Shown here: piece by piece, positions 4,984-30,565 of the stretch | Position numbering within the stretch: position 1 is the first letter of the stretch | Layout: every line of letters starts with the position of its first letter | Source of the DNA: a virus | Taxonomy: Duplodnaviria; Heunggongvirae; Uroviricota; Caudoviricetes | IMG/VR virus record: IMGVR_UViG_2778261446_000008 | Span: 1 to 30,565 of that record | DNA length: 30,565 nucleotides | Strand: one strand, 5' to 3' | Program-made: the position numbers and the translations under genes | Notes under the pieces: model-generated | Told to the model about the DNA's origin: nothing | Database searches by the model: none | What the model saw: only the letters and a program-made list of their open reading frames with translations

Positions 4984-5085
4984 CGCGCGCTAACTCATAA
5001 ATCCTAGATTATTAGTGGATTTATCTCATTGAAATGTGCACTATTCCCAGCATTGAGTTGTACCAGATGTCTTTATGGAGGGACT

Positions 5086-6852
5086 GTGGCTTTTGTAACT
5101 GATATTCGGCTTGAAGATAATGCTATTGCTGCACCTGCGACAGCACAGGTTATGGCTCAGAGGCTAGGATCTGTATTACGTAAGAGATATGAAGAATTCA
5201 TCCATAAAAGAGAGTGTGCACCAGGCCAAGCAGACTATGATGTAAAAATGGCTAGCAGGGCTTTAGCCGCATTCACTATGTATCAGTTAGGATGTGTGGA
5301 TGATAAGTATGCAGGGGAGTCTGTATGTGATAGTAGTGAAGATGGTGGTATAGATGGAATAGCAATCAACCATAACGAAAAAATCGTTGTTGTTGTTCAA
5401 TCAAAATTTCACCAATCGGGAAACGGCACTTGGACAAGAGCCGATTTTATGTGTTTTAAGGATGCTTGTGAGAAGCTACAAAGTGAAAGATACGAATTAT
5501 TTGATTCCATATTGCAAAATAAAAGCGGGGAAATAAGTGCGGCTTTAAGTAGTTTTGAATACAAGTTCATCTTTGCGATGGCGCATACAGGTAAAAAAGG
5601 TGCTGCAGAGGAAATATTAAATGATATGCGGGAATGGCAATATCAATTAAACGCTGCAGCTTTTACACCTGAGGATGAGCCTAAAGAGAACTGGGGATTT
5701 CAGGTTCATTTAATATCCTCTGAAGATATGATGCATTGGTTACAGAATGGCTCTCGAAATCAAATTGATCTTAACAGGGTTGAAATTGAGCGTTTTGGAT
5801 TTTTGAATGAACCATATCAAGCTTTTTACGGGGCTATTAGTGGTGATCAAGTTGCAGAATGGTGGGAAGAGCATGGTGCTCGATTATTTACAAAAAACAT
5901 AAGGAATATGCTTGGTAAAACAGAAGTGAATGAGGAAATAAAAAAGACAGCTATAGATAATCCTGATATGTTTTGGTTTTATAATAATGGGATTACTGTA
6001 CTGGTTAAGGAAGTTGTTCCTCATAGACGAAACGCAGCTCCTAATATAGAGAGAGGGATTTTTGATTTTCGTGATGTAAGTGTCATTAATGGTGCACAAA
6101 CAGTCAGTAGTATTGGCGCATGTAAAGATGCGCTTGGTGAAAACATATATAGACTCAAAGTGCCAGCTAGATTCATTGTTATAGATGATGATACTGATAA
6201 TTTAACTGCAAATGCAATTACAAAAGCTAACAATTTCCAAAATAGAGTATTGGGAAGAGATTTTGCATCGCAGCAGGCAGATCAACATAGATTGGCAAGG
6301 GAGTTAGTGCTTGAAGGATATCAATATCAGTTACTAAGAACAGATGAAGATCATTCACAGACAAATACGAAAGTCATTGACTTGGATGAGGCGCTCAATG
6401 CACTCGCATGTTTAAGTAAAAATAATACGGTTGTATCGACACTAAAATCAAATCGCGGTAGGTTTTTTGAAAATTTTGAAGGCTCTCTATATAAAACTAT
6501 TTTCAATCCAAGATTAAGTGGTTTAAAACTTATCAATACTGTTCTACATTTTAGAGTTATAGATAAGTTGATCGGTAAAACATTACTATCAGTAGATAAA
6601 ACGACCCATAGTCGCAAGCATTTAATTATTACGCATGGTAATAGATACTATGCGTCTGTACTATTGAGCAACGTTTCTGGGATACATAATAGCTCAGAAA
6701 TTCTTGTTCCAGATGAAAAAAATCTTTCCGAAGAATTAAGTGCATTAATTCAACGTGCTGAAGAGTACATTGAAGATAATTACCCGAATGCCTATCCGGC
6801 AAGATTTTTTGCAAATCCAACGAAAATACAAGAGTTATACGATAATGTTTAA
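5086..6852 (+). CDS. AIPR-like putative abortive-infection protein with an N-terminal PD-(D/E)xK-like nuclease motif (candidate anti-phage cargo gene)
   Basis: Long ORF (track 5029..6852 from a TTG, 607 codons); plausible starts are GTG 5086 (RBS ggaggg 5077-5082) or ATG 5152. Markedly AT-rich relative to flanking phage DNA. Motifs: SEDGGIDGIAI...VVVQSKF (D...QxK nuclease-like) and a central FWFYNNGITVL / INGAQT block that I recall as AIPR-like. Lies between cos and Q and ends at a strong terminator. Confidence 0.6.
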   Translation: MAFVTDIRLEDNAIAAPATAQVMAQRLGSVLRKRYEEFIHKRECAPGQADYDVKMASRALAAFTMYQLGCVDDKYAGESVCDSSEDGGIDGIAINHNEKIVVVVQSKFHQSGNGTWTRADFMCFKDACEKLQSERYELFDSILQNKSGEISAALSSFEYKFIFAMAHTGKKGAAEEILNDMREWQYQLNAAAFTPEDEPKENWGFQVHLISSEDMMHWLQNGSRNQIDLNRVEIERFGFLNEPYQAFYGAISGDQVAEWWEEHGARLFTKNIRNMLGKTEVNEEIKKTAIDNPDMFWFYNNGITVLVKEVVPHRRNAAPNIERGIFDFRDVSVINGAQTVSSIGACKDALGENIYRLKVPARFIVIDDDTDNLTANAITKANNFQNRVLGRDFASQQADQHRLARELVLEGYQYQLLRTDEDHSQTNTKVIDLDEALNALACLSKNNTVVSTLKSNRGRFFENFEGSLYKTIFNPRLSGLKLINTVLHFRVIDKLIGKTLLSVDKTTHSRKHLIITHGNRYYASVLLSNVSGIHNSSEILVPDEKNLSEELSALIQRAEEYIEDNYPNAYPARFFANPTKIQELYDNV

Positions 6853-9721: not shown

Positions 9722-9739
9722 TGTGTGGTTATCGGTACA
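9722..9739. promoter_or_regulatory. TGT-N12-ACA dyad (Ogr/Delta-type late-promoter activator site) in the divergent P/O intergenic region
   Basis: TGTgtggttatcggtACA with exactly 12 nt between TGT and ACA; the centre lies about 55 nt upstream of a plausible O transcription start (O ATG at 9818). It shares TGTGTG...CGGTACA with the dyad upstream of FI. Confidence 0.55.
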
Positions 9740-15629: not shown

Positions 15630-15647
15630 TGTATCAGCACTGATACA
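15630..15647. promoter_or_regulatory. perfect palindrome TGTATCAG-CA-CTGATACA (TGT-N12-ACA class) between S and V; candidate late-promoter activator site
   Basis: Fits TGT-N12-ACA with 8-bp perfect arms. It lies in the S-V intergenic region where the P2 V promoter is located, but its centre is only about 55 nt from the V ATG, so spacing to a transcription start is atypical. Confidence 0.4.
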
Positions 15648-17523: not shown

Positions 17524-18121
17524 TCTGCTGCCACCGGGTTCAACTTCACTGGAGCGCCGACTGGCGCAAACCTGTAGCGGGATTTCTGATTTGCAGGTGC
17601 CGCTGCGTGACTTGTGGAATCCGGCTACCTGTCCGGTCAGCTTTCTGCCTTATCTCGCCTGGGCGTTCTCTGTGGATCGCTGGGACGAGGGCTGGACAGA
17701 AAGCGTCAAACGCCAGGTAGTGAAGGATGCTTTTTATATTCATCAGCACAAAGGAACCACCAGTGCCGTACGGCGGGTGGTGGAGCCGTTCGGCTTCCTG
17801 ATCCGCATTATTGAGTGGTGGCAGACCGGAGAAATACCGGGCACGTTTCGTCTGGACATTGGTGTGCAGGACCAGGGCATCACTGAAGATACCTATCTGG
17901 AACTTGAGCGACTGATAAGCGATGCCAAACCATGTAGCCGTCACATGATCGGCATGTCCATCAATCTGCAGACCAGCGGCCCGCATTGGGTGGGAGCCGC
18001 CAGCTATCTTGGCGAAGAAATCACGATCTATCCGTATATCAACGAAACGATTATTTCCGGTGGCACCGCGCATGAAGGCGGGGCGGTCCATGTTATTGAC
18101 ACAATGAGAGTGAATCCATGA
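17516..18121 (+). CDS. I: tail/baseplate protein I (P2 gpI-like)
   Basis: 201-aa ORF between J and the tail-fibre gene. Confidence 0.8.
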   Translation: MNSLLPPGSTSLERRLAQTCSGISDLQVPLRDLWNPATCPVSFLPYLAWAFSVDRWDEGWTESVKRQVVKDAFYIHQHKGTTSAVRRVVEPFGFLIRIIEWWQTGEIPGTFRLDIGVQDQGITEDTYLELERLISDAKPCSRHMIGMSINLQTSGPHWVGAASYLGEEITIYPYINETIISGGTAHEGGAVHVIDTMRVNP

Positions 18122-19695
18122 GCACAAAATTTTATACCCTGCTGACGGATATTGGCGCGGCGAAACTTGCCAGCGCCGCCGCGCTCGGTGTGCCGCTAAA
18201 AATTACCCATATGGCGGTGGGCGATGGCGGTGGAGTATTGCCAACGCCGGACGCAAAGCAGACGGCACTGGTAAATGAGAAACGCCGGGCTGCGCTGAAT
18301 ATGCTTTATATCGACCCGCAGAACAGCAGCCAGATTATTGCCGAACAGGTGATCCCTGAAAACGAGGGCGGTTGGTGGATACGTGAAGTGGGCTTGTTTG
18401 ATGAGTCCGGGGCATTGATTGCCGTGGGCAACTGCCCGGAAAGCTATAAGCCGCAACTGGCTGAAGGTAGCGGGCGCACTCAGACCGTGCGCATGGTGCT
18501 GATTACCAGCAGCACGGACAATATCACCCTGAACATCGACCCTGCCGTAGTGCTGGCAACCCGCAAGTATGTGGATGATAAGGTACTGGAGCTGAAGGTG
18601 TACGCGGATGATCAGATGGCAAAACATCTTGCCGCACCGGACCCGCATTCACAGTACGCGCCAAAAGCCAGCCCGACATTTACCGGAACCCCCAAAGCGC
18701 CAACGCCAGCGGCGGGGGATAATACCACGCAGGTTGCGACCACTGCGTTTGTACAGGCGGCACTGACGGCCCTTATTAATGGTGCGCCAGCCACGCTGGA
18801 CACGCTGAAAGAAATAGCCGCAGCCATTAACAATGATCCGAATTTCAGTACCACCATTAACAATGCGCTGGCACTAAAAGCACCGTTGTCGAGTCCGGCA
18901 CTCACCGGAACGCCAACAGCCCCCACGGCGGCGCAGTCGGTCAACAATACACAGATTGCCACTACGGCTTTTGTGAAATCGGCGATTGCAGGAATGGTGG
19001 GTTCTGCACCTGCTGCACTGGATACACTGAACGAACTGGCGGCGGCACTGGGGAATGATCCGAACTTTGCCACGACAATGCTTAATGCGCTGGCAGGTAA
19101 ACAACCGCTGGACAATACGCTTACCAATTTGAGTGGAAAGGATGTAGCTGGTCTTCTCGCATACCTTGGTTTGGGAGAAGCGGCAAAAAGCAGGGTTCTT
19201 CAGAGCGGAGGAGATTCAGTTAAAGACGTCATGAGCCAGAATGCCATTACTTACCTGCTTTCCTTGAAAGCAGGTGTTAACGGTGAAAGAGTAGAGGCTG
19301 AAAACTTCAGAGAAGCCCTGAATTTGGGTAACGCGGCATTAAAAAACACAGGAACCGGGCAAGGGCAATTGCCTGATATGTCTGCATTTTTATCTAATCA
19401 AGAAGTGAATGGCTATCAGTATCTTCCTGGTGGGCTAATTCTTCAATGGGGAAACACACCATGTGAAGACCGGCGTACAACCGTTTCAAAGTTCCCGATA
19501 CCCTTTCCAAACGAATGCTTAATGGTCATTGTGTGTGGTTTTCAGGTGGCAGGAACCTACCAGGCTTATACGGTGGTAAATGGGGAATGGAACGACCAAT
19601 TCTCATGGAACGCCTTTTACGCGCAGTCTGGAAATATTCCTGTCCTTGCCGCAGCGGGACAGGTTAACGCCCGGTTTTTAGCTATAGGGAGATAA
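18118..19695 (+). CDS. H: tail fibre protein H: constant N-terminal part plus currently expressed variable C-terminal (receptor-binding) part
   Basis: N-terminus MSTKFYTLLTDIGAAKLA...ITHMAVGDGGG is the conserved P2 H N-terminus; three tandem tail-fibre collar repeats (TGTPKAPT.../LDTLKEIAAAINNDPNF). The C-terminal ~170 aa lie inside the invertible segment. Confidence 0.9.
   Translation: MSTKFYTLLTDIGAAKLASAAALGVPLKITHMAVGDGGGVLPTPDAKQTALVNEKRRAALNMLYIDPQNSSQIIAEQVIPENEGGWWIREVGLFDESGALIAVGNCPESYKPQLAEGSGRTQTVRMVLITSSTDNITLNIDPAVVLATRKYVDDKVLELKVYADDQMAKHLAAPDPHSQYAPKASPTFTGTPKAPTPAAGDNTTQVATTAFVQAALTALINGAPATLDTLKEIAAAINNDPNFSTTINNALALKAPLSSPALTGTPTAPTAAQSVNNTQIATTAFVKSAIAGMVGSAPAALDTLNELAAALGNDPNFATTMLNALAGKQPLDNTLTNLSGKDVAGLLAYLGLGEAAKSRVLQSGGDSVKDVMSQNAITYLLSLKAGVNGERVEAENFREALNLGNAALKNTGTGQGQLPDMSAFLSNQEVNGYQYLPGGLILQWGNTPCEDRRTTVSKFPIPFPNECLMVIVCGFQVAGTYQAYTVVNGEWNDQFSWNAFYAQSGNIPVLAAAGQVNARFLAIGR
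19154..19179. repeat. candidate 26-bp invertase crossover site 1 (gix/hix/cix-like) inside gene H
   Basis: TTCTCGCATACC-TT-GGTTTGGGAGAA: near-palindromic 12-2-12 architecture resembling Hin/Gin/Cin crossover sites; located at the constant/variable junction of H. Confidence 0.5.
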
Positions 19696-19698
19696 TGT

Positions 19699-20121
19699 AT
19701 GTACATATTTGACAACAAAACGCAGTGTTTTTTCCCTCTCGCATTGAAAGACAGATATATTGCTGCCGGAACATGGCCGGAGAATGGCGTTGAGGTGGAT
19801 GACGATACTTTCTCCGAATTCCAGGTGCCGCCAGCAGGGAAAATGAGAGTTGCAGGCAGTGACGGCCTGCCTGCATGGGGTGATATCCCGCCGCCCACCC
19901 ATGAAGAATTGATCACCATTGCTGAACAGGTGCGCCAACAGCTGCTGACTCATGCTGACGCGGTAATGCTCGACTGGCGAACGGAACTAATGCTGGATGA
20001 AATCAGCGACACCAACAGAGCTAAACTGTCGGCATGGCTGGCGTATAAGAATGAAGTTAAGGCGGTTGATGTGACAACCAACCCTGAGCATATTAACTGG
20101 CCTGTTCCCCCGGAGGTGTAG
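19699..20121 (+). CDS. G: tail fibre assembly protein (P2 gpG-like)
   Basis: 140 aa; follows H after a 3-nt gap; C-terminal ...NWPVPPEV resembles the conserved tfa C-terminus. Confidence 0.8.
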   Translation: MYIFDNKTQCFFPLALKDRYIAAGTWPENGVEVDDDTFSEFQVPPAGKMRVAGSDGLPAWGDIPPPTHEELITIAEQVRQQLLTHADAVMLDWRTELMLDEISDTNRAKLSAWLAYKNEVKAVDVTTNPEHINWPVPPEV

Positions 20122-20509
20122 GCCATACGGGTTTTGCTGTATCAACCCGCATTAACAGTACCCGGTACTTCTTCCACTCAGACAACGCGGCGGTTTCCTC
20201 ATCCGTCGCGATATCCGCGTCAACAGCATCCTGTCGCCAGGCTATTTCAGAATCCGCCCGCGTACGTAAATCACGTCGTGTTTGCTCAGCCCGGGCAACT
20301 CGTTCTTCAGGCGACAGGGAGGGGATGTCAACCCACACAGGATAACCATTATTATCCGTTCCCAGCATTTTCCCTTCCGGTGGGTACTGGCTATAAACAG
20401 CCATTGCCTCATCACTCACATCGGCAGCATGTTCCGGCCACGTTCCGGCAGAAACATAGGCATCTTTAAGTGCTTCCGGATAAAAAACACCCTGATAAAA
20501 TTTATTCAT
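20093..20509 (-). CDS. alternative tail fibre assembly protein (tfa'), expressed after inversion
   Basis: 138-aa product from ATG 20509 (MNKFYQGVFYPEA...WPTPPGEQAS), homologous to G; the track ORF 20093..20650 reads through from the upstream alternative fibre segment. ATGA overlap with the alternative H segment. Confidence 0.7.
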   Translation of the reverse strand: MNKFYQGVFYPEALKDAYVSAGTWPEHAADVSDEAMAVYSQYPPEGKMLGTDNNGYPVWVDIPSLSPEERVARAEQTRRDLRTRADSEIAWRQDAVDADIATDEETAALSEWKKYRVLLMRVDTAKPVWPTPPGEQAS

Positions 20510-20958
20510 AAATACCCCACAGCGAAGAAACAGCAATCTTCCACCGCCCCTGCTGGCGCCCAGTTTTGGATCCTGATTTGAGACCGATTTTCTATACTGA
20601 CATTCATTGACTGGCTGTAGCCATTCGCTGCTCTGCATCCCATAGCCCACAGACCTGCGGTTGGAAATGCATAGGGCAGGTTGTAGATATTATTCTCTCC
20701 GCCGCGTGTCCGTATGGTTCCCCACTGCAGCATTATCTTTACCGGATTATCTGTGGTTGCAAGACAAGGAATATACAAATAGCCATTTCCACCGGCGAAG
20801 AAAGAGAAATCTGATGCACTCAATACCTGATTTTTTCCCACTCCCATAGAGGCCAGTGCCGCCGTACCAAGCTGAAGGGCATTTCTGAAAGCGGCCACAT
20901 TCTGAATATCACCACCGTTTGCACTTTTCTGCATCGCTCCAGCGGCCTGTTTTACCGT
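20506..20958 (-). CDS. alternative tail-fibre variable C-terminal segment (Hv'), promoterless and startless; fused in frame to constant H after inversion
   Basis: The minus-strand ORF (track 20506..21012) is homologous to the current H C-terminus (RNALQLGTAAL vs REALNLGNAAL; LQWGTI vs LQWGNT). The reading frame across crossover site 2 matches the H frame across site 1. Confidence 0.65.
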   Translation of the reverse strand, partial: TVKQAAGAMQKSANGGDIQNVAAFRNALQLGTAALASMGVGKNQVLSASDFSFFAGGNGYLYIPCLATTDNPVKIMLQWGTIRTRGGENNIYNLPYAFPTAGLWAMGCRAANGYSQSMNVSIENRSQIRIQNWAPAGAVEDCCFFAVGYL

Positions 20959-20984
20959 TTCTTCCAAATGAACGTTTAAGAAAA
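20959..20984. repeat. candidate 26-bp invertase crossover site 2 (inverted relative to site 1)
   Basis: TTCTTCCAAATG-AA-CGTTTAAGAAAA; its reverse complement matches site 1 at 17 of 26 positions with identical central TT; about 55 bp upstream of the invertase gene. Confidence 0.45.
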
Positions 20985-21039
20985 TGCAGAGATAACGGCT
21001 AACTGGCATCATCTCCGGTTTTTATTCAGGGGGATGATC

Positions 21040-21606
21040 ATGCTTATTGGCTATGTACGCGTGTCAACAAATGACCAGAACACCGATTTGCAACGCAATG
21101 CACTGAACTGTGCGGGATGTGAGCGGATTTTTGAGGATAAAATCAGTGGCACCAAGTCCGACAGACCGGGGCTGAAAAAGCTGCTCAGGACACTATCGGC
21201 AGGAGACACGCTGGTTGTCTGGAAGCTGGACAGACTGGGGCGCAGTATGCGGCATCTTGTTACGCTGATAGAAGAGCTGCGCCAGCGTGGCGTGAATTTC
21301 CGAAGCCTGACTGACAGTATTGATACCAGCACCCCAATGGGCCGTTTCTTTTTTCATGTCATGGGTGCCCTGGCTGAAATGGAACGCGAACTGATAGTTG
21401 AACGTACCAGGGCGGGGCTGGCTGCAGCTCGTGCTAAAGGCAGAGTAGGTGGACGCCGTCCTAAGTTGACCAGCGAACAGTGGGCACAGATTGGGCGTTT
21501 ACTCGAGGCCGGAGAATCAAGACAGCGTATTGCACTGATTTTTGATGTAGGCGTTTCTACCATTTATCGAAAATTTCCGGCAAATAAGAACAATAAATCT
21601 CCCTGA
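21040..21606 (+). CDS. site-specific DNA invertase, serine recombinase (Hin/Gin/Cin/Pin family)
   Basis: N-terminus MLIGYVRVSTNDQNTDLQ with catalytic serine context (YVRVST), resolvase core, and C-terminal HTH (GVSTIYRKF); 188 aa from ATG 21040. Confidence 0.9.
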   Translation: MLIGYVRVSTNDQNTDLQRNALNCAGCERIFEDKISGTKSDRPGLKKLLRTLSAGDTLVVWKLDRLGRSMRHLVTLIEELRQRGVNFRSLTDSIDTSTPMGRFFFHVMGALAEMERELIVERTRAGLAAARAKGRVGGRRPKLTSEQWAQIGRLLEAGESRQRIALIFDVGVSTIYRKFPANKNNKSP

Positions 21607-21654
21607 ATCAGCTTTATTTTGATTATCCCTGAAAGCAGACAAATACCGTCATTT

Positions 21655-21672
21655 TGTGTGAATAACGGTACA
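21655..21672. promoter_or_regulatory. TGT-N12-ACA dyad (Ogr-type late-promoter site) upstream of the tail sheath operon
   Basis: TGTgtgaataacggtACA; the centre is about 55 nt upstream of a plausible transcription start roughly 30 nt before the FI ATG; shares TGTGTG...CGGTACA with the P/O site. Confidence 0.55.
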
Positions 21673-21748
21673 ACTGCGCTTAGCTGTTTGTCAGGCACAA
21701 TCACTTCAACATAGGGCGAAGCCTAATCCAATCAGGAGGTTCGCCACT

Positions 21749-22921
21749 ATGGCTCAGGATTACCACCACGGGGTGCGCGTTGTTGAAGTCAACGAAGGCA
21801 CCCGATCCATTACCACGGTGAGCACCGCCATCGTGGGTATGGTCTGCACGGGCGATGATGCCGATGCAAAAATGTTTCCTCTTAATAAACCCGTGCTGAT
21901 CACTGATGTGCTGACTGCCAGCGGTAAAGCGGGTGAGTCAGGCACGCTGGCTCGTTCGCTGGATGCCATCGCTGACCAGGCAAAACCCGTGACCGTTGTT
22001 GTGCGTGTGCCGCAGGGTGAAACGGAAGAAGAAACCACGACCAATATCATCGGAGCAGTGACCGCTGAAGGTAAAAAAACAGGCATGAAAGCCCTGTTAT
22101 CTGCCCAGTCACAGCTCGGCGTTAAACCGCGCATTCTCGGCGTGCCAGGTCACGACACGAAGGCGGTAGCTACTGAGTTGCTGAGCGTGGCGCAAAGCCT
22201 GCGTGGATTTGCTTACCTGTCAGCGTATGGTTGCAAGACGGTGCAGGAAGCAATCACTTACCGTGAAAACTTCAGTCAGCGTGAAGGAATGCTGATCTGG
22301 CCCGACTTTACTGGCTGGGACACGGTGCTGAATGCCGAAGCAACGGCTTATGCCACCGCCCGTGCGCTTGGTCTGCGCGCCAAAATTGACGAGCAGACCG
22401 GATGGCACAAAAGCCTGTCCAACGTGGGCGTTAACGGTGTCACCGGAATTTCTGCTGATGTGTTCTGGGATCTGCAGGACCCGGCAACCGATGCGGGACT
22501 GCTGAACCAGAACGACGTCACCACCCTTATCCGCAAAGACGGTTTTCGCTTCTGGGGTTCCCGCTGCCTGAGTGATGACCCACTCTTTGCCTTCGAAAAC
22601 TACACCCGCACGGCGCAGGTGCTGACGGACACGATGGCAGAAGCGCACATGTGGGCGGTGGATAAACCGCTGAATCCGTCGCTGGCCCGCGACATTATCG
22701 AGGGTATCCGCGCCAAAATGCGCAGCCTGGTCAGTCAGGGCTATCTCATTGGTGGTGATTGCTGGCTGGATGAGTCGGTGAACGACAAAGACACGCTGAA
22801 AACCGGAAAACTCACCATCGACTACGACTACACGCCAGTGCCGCCACTTGAAAACCTGATGCTGCGTCAGCGCATCACCGATCAGTACCTGGTGAATTTC
22901 TCCAGCCAGGTCAGCGCGTAA
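21749..22921 (+). CDS. FI: tail sheath protein (P2 gpFI-like)
   Basis: 390-aa ORF followed by the tail tube gene; P2 FI is of similar size. Confidence 0.9.
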
Positions 22922-28880: not shown

Positions 28881-28904
28881 AACCTGCTACGGCAGGTTTT
28901 TATT
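28881..28904. terminator. bidirectional terminator between ogr and the WYL-BRCT gene
   Basis: aacctgc-tacg-gcaggtt hairpin followed by TTTTATT on the + strand; located between convergent stops (28873 and 28900). Confidence 0.65.
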
Positions 28905-29382
28905 CATCTGGGATCTCACCCGTTTCAAGAAAATGTATAAAGCCAGGCTCATCTATGATGATTGTGCCTTTCATCCTGGCTGCCGATACTTTTGATGGGC
29001 CTGCATTGTAACCGCAACAGAGCATCTGAAGGCTTTGGGTTACAGAGGTTCTTACCGTTAATCCTTGTTCATTCGCCTTATCAACCAATCTTTCTTTATC
29101 TGCTTTCTTAAATCCGGTGAAACACACATCGAATGTATTTTTTTTCGGACCAGACTGCTTGGTGAGATGTGAGTAGTTTTCGGGGAGGAATGACGCGCAC
29201 TCCTGAATGGCTTGTTCTGGTGAATCGTACTGTTTAAGAATGCGGTCTTTTCGGAAGGTTTTTATTCGATCGGTGTTCTTACAAATGCCCTGTATATGAT
29301 TTTCGCTATAACTGATGCTCTGTATAGAGTGAACACCGATACGACCATTTGCATTGATGTAAACAAAGTGAAGTTCTTCCAT
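28900..29382 (-). CDS. small WYL-domain plus BRCT-domain protein (cargo gene between ogr and the ssrA junction)
   Basis: 160 aa; N-terminal half has a WYL-like signature (FVY...G...R.FRKDRI); C-terminal half has a BRCT-like pattern (NTFDVCFTGF...LTVRTSVT...CCGYNAGPSKVSAARMKGTIIIDEPGFIHFLETG). RBS agagg 6 nt before the ATG; AT-rich composition. Confidence 0.6.
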   Translation of the reverse strand: MEELHFVYINANGRIGVHSIQSISYSENHIQGICKNTDRIKTFRKDRILKQYDSPEQAIQECASFLPENYSHLTKQSGPKKNTFDVCFTGFKKADKERLVDKANEQGLTVRTSVTQSLQMLCCGYNAGPSKVSAARMKGTIIIDEPGFIHFLETGEIPDE

Positions 29383-29505: not shown

Positions 29506-29868
29506 TGGTGGAGCTGGCGGGAGTTGAACCCGCGTCCGAAATTCCTACATCCTCGGTACTACATGCTTAGTCAGTCTTTACATTCGCTTGCCAGCTGCGG
29601 ACGGACACGCCACTAACAAACTAGCCTGATTAAGTTTTAACGCTTCAACCCCAGGCAGGGCTTCCACGCGATCTCTTTTGGGTTTGACCTCTCTTGATCC
29701 CCGTCCTAAGAGCGGAGGCTAGGGAGAGAGGGCTCTAAGCAGGTTATTAAGCTGCTAAAGCGTAGTTTTCGTCGTTTGCGACTATTTTTTGCGGCTTTTT
29801 ACGAGGCCAACCGCCCCTCGGCATGCACCTTGGGTTTCGCAAATCCCGTCGAATCCAGAATCAGCCCC
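29506..29868 (-). ncRNA. ssrA: tmRNA (SsrA, transfer-messenger RNA)
   Basis: The reverse complement reads GGGGCTGATTCTGGATTCGACGGGATTTGCGAAACCCAAGGTGCATGCC...GCAAACGACGAAAACTACGCTTTAGCAGCTTAA...GGTTCAACTCCCGCCAGCTCCACCA, i.e. the enterobacterial tmRNA including the tag-peptide reading frame (ANDENYALAA) and the tRNA-like 3' end. Confidence 0.95.
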
Positions 29869-30082: not shown

Positions 30083-30565
30083 TTAACGGTGGGCGTTTTT
30101 CATGATACGCGCTTTATCCACCTGCCATTCGCGCTCTTTGATATCTGAACGTTTATCGTGCTGTTTCTTACCTTTGGCGACGCCGATTTTCACTTTGCAC
30201 CAGGCATTTTTCCAGTACAGGGAGAGCGCCACTACGGTATAGCCTTCTCGATTGACGCGACCGTACAATGAGTCCAGTTCGCGCTGGTTGAGAAGTAACT
30301 TGCGGGTACGGGTAGGATCGCACACCACATGCGTGGAGGCCACTGCCATTGGCGTGATGTTTGCGCCAAACAGGAACGCTTCTCCGTCACGCAGAAGGAC
30401 ATAGCTGTCGCTGATATTGGCTTTTCCTGCGCGCAGGGATTTAACTTCCCAGCCTTGCAGGGCAAGTCCCGCTTCGAACTCTTCTTCGATAAAGTATTCG
30501 TGACGGGCGCGCTTGTTAAGCGCGATGGTCGCTGAACCAGGTTTATGTGCTTTTTTCTTCGTCAT
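30083..30565 (-). CDS. smpB: SsrA-binding protein SmpB
   Basis: 160-aa product [56 protein letters not shown]... matches E. coli/Salmonella SmpB as I recall it; located upstream of ssrA on the same strand. Confidence 0.95.

Follow-up and report, generated by a model that had tools for sequence, protein, structure and literature searches.

Does the tail-fibre gene of a P2-like prophage end in a single fixed tip, or can the tip be exchanged by turning round the DNA that follows it? This question is raised by a virus sequence of 30,565 nucleotides (IMG/VR record IMGVR_UViG_2778261446_000008, positions 1 to 30,565, analysed over its whole length and henceforth called the window), in which a serine DNA invertase gene lies between the fibre gene H and the sheath gene FI of a prophage of Escherichia coli. 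A first-pass annotation made from the letters alone had proposed that this invertase acts on two inverted 26-bp sites with a matching central dinucleotide, one inside H and the other in front of a promoterless alternative fibre C-terminus that is encoded on the opposite strand together with a second tail-fibre assembly gene, and that the two tips can be swapped in frame by the mechanism of the Mu G and P1 C segments. Domain searches, site scoring and comparison with public genomes bear out each of these claims, and we conclude that the locus is very probably a site-specific inversion switch of the Gin/Cin/Pin type, which changes the tail-fibre tip of a P2-like E. coli prophage.

The current H gene (18118-19695, + strand) is an open reading frame (ORF) of 525 residues, with an N-terminal Phage_tail_fib domain of the tail-collar fibre kind and a C-terminal Gp53-like_C domain. 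Its constant part comprises codons 1-350 and ends at the crossover point at 19166-19167, where the variable tip Hv1 begins (19168-19695, +; 175 residues, Gp53-like_C), presently fused in frame to H. The invertible segment, located between H and FI, measures 1803 bp between the two central dinucleotides (19168-20970) and carries two convergent pairs of tip and assembly chaperone. The first pair is Hv1 and tfa1 (19699-20121, +; 140 residues, Caudo_TAP, 2.2e-30), and the second, silent in the present orientation, is Hv2 (20506-20970, -; 154 codons including the stop, Gp53-like_C) and tfa2 (20093-20509, -; 138 residues, Caudo_TAP, 2.8e-32). The stop of Hv2 overlaps the start of tfa2 in the sequence ATGA, and the 3' end of tfa2 shares 29 bp with tfa1. 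The two tips are 31% identical over 98 residues and the two chaperones 41% identical. Each variable tip thus has its own chaperone directly after it and the two sets converge, as in a Mu G-type segment, and the domain matches establish the identity of the second chaperone and the alternative C-terminal segment. The Hv2 frame remains open upstream, past the crossover site, to an ATG at 21012 (20506-21012, -), and public annotations call this ORF as a separate 'hypothetical', 'gp53-like' or 'tail fiber' protein of 167-168 residues. The ORF of this size beside the invertase is a silent fibre tip and no separate gene, and its annotation as one is a recurrent artefact in invertible fibre loci generally.

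The invertase gene (21040-21606, +) encodes a protein of 188 residues and of the Gin/Cin/Pin/Hin type, with matches to the Resolvase (PF00239, 2.3e-53) and HTH_7 (PF02796, 5.8e-16) domains. Residues 1-183 align with the Mu Gin structures 3uj3/4m6f (E=1e-92), and the protein keeps Y5, R7, S9, D64, R65 and R68, with S9 aligned to the catalytic position of Gin and the region around this serine intact. The ORF could be extended to an ATG at 21034; the gene calls in relatives, which give 188 residues, point to 21040 as the start.

The left crossover site (19154-19179) reads TTCTCGCATACC-TT-GGTTTGGGAGAA, with its central TT at 19166-19167 inside the H reading frame. The right site (20959-20984) reads TTCTTCCAAATG-AA-CGTTTAAGAAAA, with its central AA at 20971-20972, and as reverse complement TTTTCTTAAACG-TT-CATTTGGAAGAA. 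Since the + strand carries TT in the left core and AA in the right one, the sites are inverted, and since TT occupies codon positions 2-3 in both (the codon is ctt in H and gtt in the silent ORF), recombination at the core leaves the reading frame intact. The left site has one mismatch to the hix/gix consensus, for which 0.01 matches are expected by chance. When the window was scored with a matrix derived solely from the half-sites of Mu gix and P1 cix, the top two 26-mers in its 30.5 kb were these two sites, at 25.8 (left) and 13.3 (right); the best score from shuffled sequences was 10.3 in the median and never exceeded 17.4. The left site stands well clear of chance. The right site we accept because of its position, the comparative data and the observed inversion described below. 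Neither site was listed by a generic inverted-repeat search, because they have only 18 of their 26 bases in common; the top pairs in that search were the weak homologies between Hv1 and Hv2 and between tfa1 and tfa2. A third or quasi site, as in Min- or shufflon-like multiple inversion, was also considered and rejected, as a consensus search allowing up to three mismatches and the matrix scan gave only the two sites.

Comparison with relatives draws the borders of the segment at the same places. Against five related P2-like phages or prophages, homology in H ends at 19180-19188, is absent across the segment and restarts at 20949-20959. Against E. coli ET846, where the cassette sits in an unrelated prophage by tonB, homology begins exactly at 19154 and the segment is 99.7% identical. 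The outer half-sites are therefore associated with the backbone, and the inner half-sites move with the cassette. We extended the comparison to the 80 IMG/VR loci with the closest invertases, from which site statistics were drawn for 61 and cassette types for 71. Of the 61 loci, 55 have two strong sites and no more, the left one with TT and the right one with AA, with segments of 1.2-2.2 kb, and so the proposed sites are conserved among related invertible segments. In about 60 related loci the outer half of the right site is conserved, and the distance from the first base of this site to the invertase ATG is 67-69 bp (80-82 bp from the central AA). A few IMG/VR loci have odd layouts: one (L023) has three sites, with the constant H part inverted relative to the invertase; three (L024, L036 and L092) have a distal site that bears the invertase-side outer half, L024 also having a second, opposite invertase match; in L047 both sites are of the same AA polarity; and in L025 the H-side outer half is on the proximal site. 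Such layouts might reflect systems with several sites, larger inversions or errors of assembly at the repeats.

If the segment inverts, both of its orientations should be found, and indeed both orientations of this very cassette are present in public assemblies. An exact-sequence look-up of the tfa2 protein matched many E. coli assemblies. Three of the loci (L007, L012 and L013) have the window orientation and an H of 525 residues. In the same backbone, three others (L008, with six similar places, L009 and L014) have an H of 504 residues, and in these 19166-20975 is reversed at 99.9% identity and the flanks are collinear. With the segment turned round in silico at the central dinucleotide, the window gave a gapless alignment of 7994 nt to L008, L014 and L009 and predicted an H of 504 residues, of which the Hv2 part is identical to the H of these three loci; the in-frame swap thus has its product in deposited sequence. 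The bases that flank the core differ between the sites (C-TT-G versus G-TT-C), and the inverted loci bear the reciprocal hybrids, which maps the exchange to the 2-bp TT core, a crossover point that the first-pass annotation had left to be determined. These junctions indicate that strand exchange at the central dinucleotide inverts the intervening DNA. Both orientations also occur in four of the eight recurrent cassette types among the related loci. Among complete E. coli genomes, none covers at least 80% of the whole-locus query, and the cassette is found in ET846 only, in its different prophage. Some relatives are decayed. L011 has a deletion from within tfa1 to the FII region, which takes out Hv1, the invertase and FI together with much of FII, so that Hv2 is left as the fixed tip; the invertase of L009 is truncated to 119 residues; and that of L005 is frameshifted, both inner half-sites there reading CAATTGGGAGAA.

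Invertases of this type work with a recombinational enhancer in the known systems compared below, and the enhancer that had been expected inside the invertase gene has a candidate in its 5' end, at 21058-21129. It holds two candidate Fis cores, TGTCAACAAATGACC at 21062-21076 (centre 21069) and GTGCGGGATGTGAGC at 21110-21124 (centre 21117), the latter of which fully fits the Fis-site consensus, GNNYRNNWNNYRNNC. The element is the positional homologue of the P1 cin enhancer, which is annotated in the P1 GenBank record at nt 19-90 of cin, a stretch that aligns with 21058-21129. The centres of the cores are 48 bp apart, and the nearer one lies about 97 bp from the right-site core. This geometry agrees with that of the hin enhancer, a 65-bp element with a Fis site at each end, centres about 47 bp apart, about 100 bp from hix (PMC3798978). 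We then compared synonymous differences among 18 invertase genes differing by more than 3%, drawing again on the IMG/VR loci. The value was 0.215 in the codons over the two Fis cores, as against 0.458 in the spacer between them and 0.456 in the rest of the gene, and none of 128 equally shaped pairs of blocks elsewhere in the gene reached so low a value. This points to non-coding constraint acting on exactly the two Fis-core blocks, and inversion would, by analogy with the known systems, be dependent on Fis and on supercoiled DNA.

How would such a switch be read out? The activator site of P2 late promoters is a TGT-N12-ACA dyad. One such dyad precedes V (15630-15647, +) and is likely to belong to an Ogr-dependent late promoter for V-W-J-I-H-tfa. 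Another (21655-21672, +) stands 77-94 bp before the start of FI, at the right edge of the G-to-FI hotspot, and is likely to belong to the late promoter pF; the P2 record has its annotated pF activator site 69-97 bp before FI, the same distance as the dyad in the window. A further dyad is present at 9722, in the divergent region. By itself the motif is no more frequent in the window than chance predicts, and for this reason the copies inside the cassette at 19462 and 19700 were not taken as promoters. A promoter scan of 18000-21800 gave nothing above shuffled expectation, with no sigma-70-like promoter before H or in the sense direction within the cassette and none serving the silent set, in keeping with the description of the alternative segment as promoterless. 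Together, the late-operon dyad and the lack of a promoter for the silent set argue that the tip and chaperone facing the constant part of H are read, and that the other set is silent.

In the mechanism that we propose, H would be transcribed from the late promoter upstream of V, through its 350 constant codons and on into the invertible segment. The 188-residue invertase would bind the two inverted sites, with Fis bound to the enhancer within the invertase's own 5' coding region, cut at the TT/AA core and rotate the strands. As the outcome, the constant part of H would be joined either to Hv1 (525 residues, the state of the window) or to Hv2 (504 residues), in each case with the matching chaperone directly downstream, and a lysogen population would release virions of two kinds, differing in the receptor-binding tip, and would thereby hedge on host range. 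That the tips recognise different receptors is plausible, because they are so little alike in sequence. Searches of the PDB by sequence with H, Hv2 and tfa1 gave marginal matches only, to a collar-fibre repeat, to Mu S/S' (E=0.033) and, for tfa1, to Mu U (5yvq, E=0.006). Likewise, the best tblastn matches in deposited phages reached about 51% identity with Hv1 and about 57% with Hv2, and among them was no characterised close relative of either tip.

Several observations weigh against an active switch between two receptor specificities in this prophage. The score of the right site falls within the shuffled range and is not significant on its own, and the inner half of this site (TTCTTCCAAATG) differs at three positions from the half-site usual in the family, TTCTCCCAAACC. 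L012 and L013, which are near-identical to the window (99.9%), share its orientation and so give no instance of switching within this exact clone. Low synonymous divergence near the 5' end of a gene, as over the Fis cores, may also arise for other reasons, and the genes in the comparison are not phylogenetically independent. Finally, a receptor can be assigned to neither tip, since sequence searches gave no homologue of solved structure and no match in a deposited phage above about 57% identity. The three departures in the right site suggest that inversion may be slow in this cassette. Taken further, they would make it a frozen relic, a cassette that formerly inverted and is now effectively locked by its degenerate right site, so that only the Hv1 fibre is made. 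The orientation of the closest relatives, L012 and L013, would fit such a history, as would the existence of locked or decayed relatives with a frameshifted (L005) or truncated (L009) invertase or a deletion (L011). However, the degenerate half-site moves along with the cassette, which is seen in both orientations in at least three backbones; the ORFs of the invertase, of the two chaperones and of the silent tip are unbroken; and the silent Hv2 is identical as a protein to copies that are expressed elsewhere. We therefore regard a relic as unlikely.

The two orientations might also have arisen without any inversion in situ, by independent horizontal acquisition through homologous or illegitimate recombination. 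The cassette is clearly mobile, being 99.6-99.9% identical in four backbones (see below), and in their flanks the inverted relatives match the window at only 95-99% identity. Acquisition would nonetheless have to account for junctions that are exact reciprocal hybrids at a 2-bp core within sites fitting the consensus of the invertase family, for a single in-silico inversion that makes the whole region collinear without gaps, and for half of the recurrent cassette types being found in both orientations. Moreover, the 18 of 26 bases shared by the inverted repeats are too little for RecA-mediated exchange. In P2-like prophages, both orientations are documented to coexist in clonal cultures (PMC4272514). 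Acquisition in place of inversion thus appears very improbable. A different objection concerns the purpose of the switch, which might mainly serve the host if inversion in the lysogen made a chimeric fibre protein that blocks adsorption by other phages. There is a precedent in PinQ/StfE2 of the cryptic prophage e14 (PMC12529663), and this prophage carries defence-type cargo, the AIPR/AbiU-like gene at 5029-6852. Against this, the prophage looks complete, with all P2 late genes present; H belongs to a late operon behind an Ogr-type dyad and has no sigma-70-like promoter, so that no expression is expected in an uninduced lysogen; and there is a dedicated chaperone for each tip, as the assembly of virions needs. 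An anti-phage role is unlikely to be the main function here, and we give service to the host as the chief reason for the switch hardly any credence. Weighing these readings together, we favour an inversion switch that acts on the tail-fibre tip of the phage itself.

The inversion switch described here is not a new arrangement but the textbook Mu G / P1 C / e14 P strategy set in a P2-like backbone. The locus resembles Mu G/Gin in its order and strands, S-gix-Sv-U-U'-Sv'-gix-gin, with the invertase on the same strand; in its 26-bp sites with a 2-bp core and its enhancer in the 5' end of the invertase gene; in the segment boundary, which in Mu lies 67 bp before the gin start and here, measured from the right-site centre, about 68 bp before the ATG; and in the invertase itself, which is about four-fifths identical to Gin over the aligned residues 1-183, as read from the alignment. 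It differs in that the Mu segment is 3 kb long with a TC/GA core, whereas the segment here is 1.8 kb long, has a TT/AA core and stands in a P2-like backbone, and in that the tips are Gp53-like_C proteins only marginally similar to Mu S/S' (E=0.033); the match of tfa1 to Mu U is likewise weak. With the C/Cin system of P1 and P7 the locus shares the TT/AA core, the aligned enhancer (cin nt 19-90) and the logic by which a constant part is completed by either of two variable ones. In P1, however, cin flanks the segment on the opposite side and has cixL at its 3' end; the segment is 4.2 kb long. The P system of e14 (Pin) and the Min system of p15B have an invertase of the same family and the same cargo of fibre tips and chaperones. 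Min differs in having six sites and many permutations, as opposed to the two sites here, with no third above background. Invertases of the Din family are able to substitute for one another. Hin of Salmonella is a recombinase of the same family, with 26-bp hix sites and an enhancer with two Fis sites about 48 bp apart, about 100 bp from the nearer site (PMC3798978); it flips a promoter, whereas the element flipped here is a junction within coding sequence.

Further parallels are the invertible loci of other P2-like elements, namely prophages of enteropathogenic E. coli (EPEC) E2348/69, the phages 500465-1, Cartapus and KP12, and the Fin system of Fels-2. They have the same backbone and outer half-sites and likewise stand between the fibre genes and FI, their invertases are 95-98% identical at the DNA level, and they differ in cargo only. 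P2-like phages had already been annotated with an invertase and duplicated fibre and chaperone genes, that of Cartapus being labelled 'Mu phage Gin invertase homolog'. Coexisting orientations have been shown experimentally in the P2-like prophages of clonal EPEC E2348/69 cultures (PMC4272514), an invertase with gene inversion in the Z/fun hotspot was noted earlier (bioRxiv 10.1101/2024.10.15.618418), and a host-side anti-phage role of such inversion has been reported for e14/PinQ (PMC12529663). As the first-pass annotation had stated, canonical P2 has fun(Z) at this position; in its record (NC_001895) this gene lies between the fibre genes and pF. Assemblies of prophages of this kind capture only one of two coexisting states.

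At 99.6-99.9% identity the cassette itself is found in four backbones, comprising two P2-like types, a Mu-like phage and the ET846 prophage. The copies outside the backbone of the window are those of E. coli ET846 (L001/L010, by tonB-yciI), of a Mu-like prophage (L016) and of the second P2-like type (L015), at 99.6-99.8%. Homology between backbones breaks within a few bases of the central dinucleotide. Cassettes so nearly identical in unrelated backbones, with homology breaking at the sites, argue that the cassette moves as a unit between phages. The Hv1-tfa1 / tfa2-Hv2 combination was absent from the deposited phage genomes searched and from the 80 closest IMG/VR loci, and the 71 loci compared carry 53 cassette types. 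Such variety, along with the sharing of one cassette by four backbones, supports the earlier description of the region as a hot spot for the evolution of host range. We tentatively suggest that the 26-bp sites might also act as docking points for the horizontal exchange of whole cassettes between unrelated myoviruses, a possibility that we hold with some doubt. In this scenario, the invertases of co-resident prophages would occasionally catalyse an intermolecular double exchange at the crossover sites. The pattern of shared cassettes would also result from homologous recombination in conserved flanks followed by selection, and the evidence does not separate the two routes. By whichever route, the high variability of the locus and the sharing of cassettes across unrelated phages bear on the prediction and engineering of host range.

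The rest of the window gives the setting of the switch. Its gene content and flanks identify the window as a P2-like prophage of E. coli integrated beside ssrA. The prophage encodes gpA, the baseplate proteins V, W, J and I, the fibre H, the sheath FI, the tube FII, E, the tape-measure protein, U, D and ogr, and Pfam matches in the window include Tail_P2_I, sheath domains, GPD, Ogr_Delta and Phage_GPA. The late genes follow the order V-W-J-I-H-(G)...FI-FII-E-T-U-D-ogr and are accompanied by the gpA replication protein, as is characteristic of P2-like phages (Peduoviridae). With the P2 late gene set full, the prophage looks complete. The closest deposited phages, 500465-1 (Wadgaonvirus), Cartapus (Elveevirus) and a set of Klebsiella phages, are all classed as Peduoviridae. 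On the host side, the end of the prophage adjoins ssrA (29506-29868, -), the gene for the transfer-messenger RNA (tmRNA) with the tag ANDENYALAA, and smpB (30083-30565, -), and the flanks on the ssrA/smpB side are 99.6% identical to E. coli chromosomes. Related flanks are present in 1946 of 5426 complete E. coli genomes.

The window holds several further genes. A 607-residue AIPR-domain protein (5029-6852, +; Pfam 7e-35) also matches the AbiU model of PADLOC (7e-25), and its gene lies between gpA and the portal/terminase genes, where P2 has old/tin. Given this position, the product is probably anti-phage cargo of the prophage. Between ogr and ssrA, an ORF of 160 residues (28900-29382, -) has a weak match to the PADLOC model PDC-S48 (2e-7), and a Pfam search with it gave no match; in some E. 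coli records a 'BRCT domain-containing protein' is annotated in the stretch from ogr to smpB. The early region upstream of gpA encodes a DUF5347 protein (22-381, +) and an adenine methyltransferase of the D12 class, the Dam type (846-1763, +).

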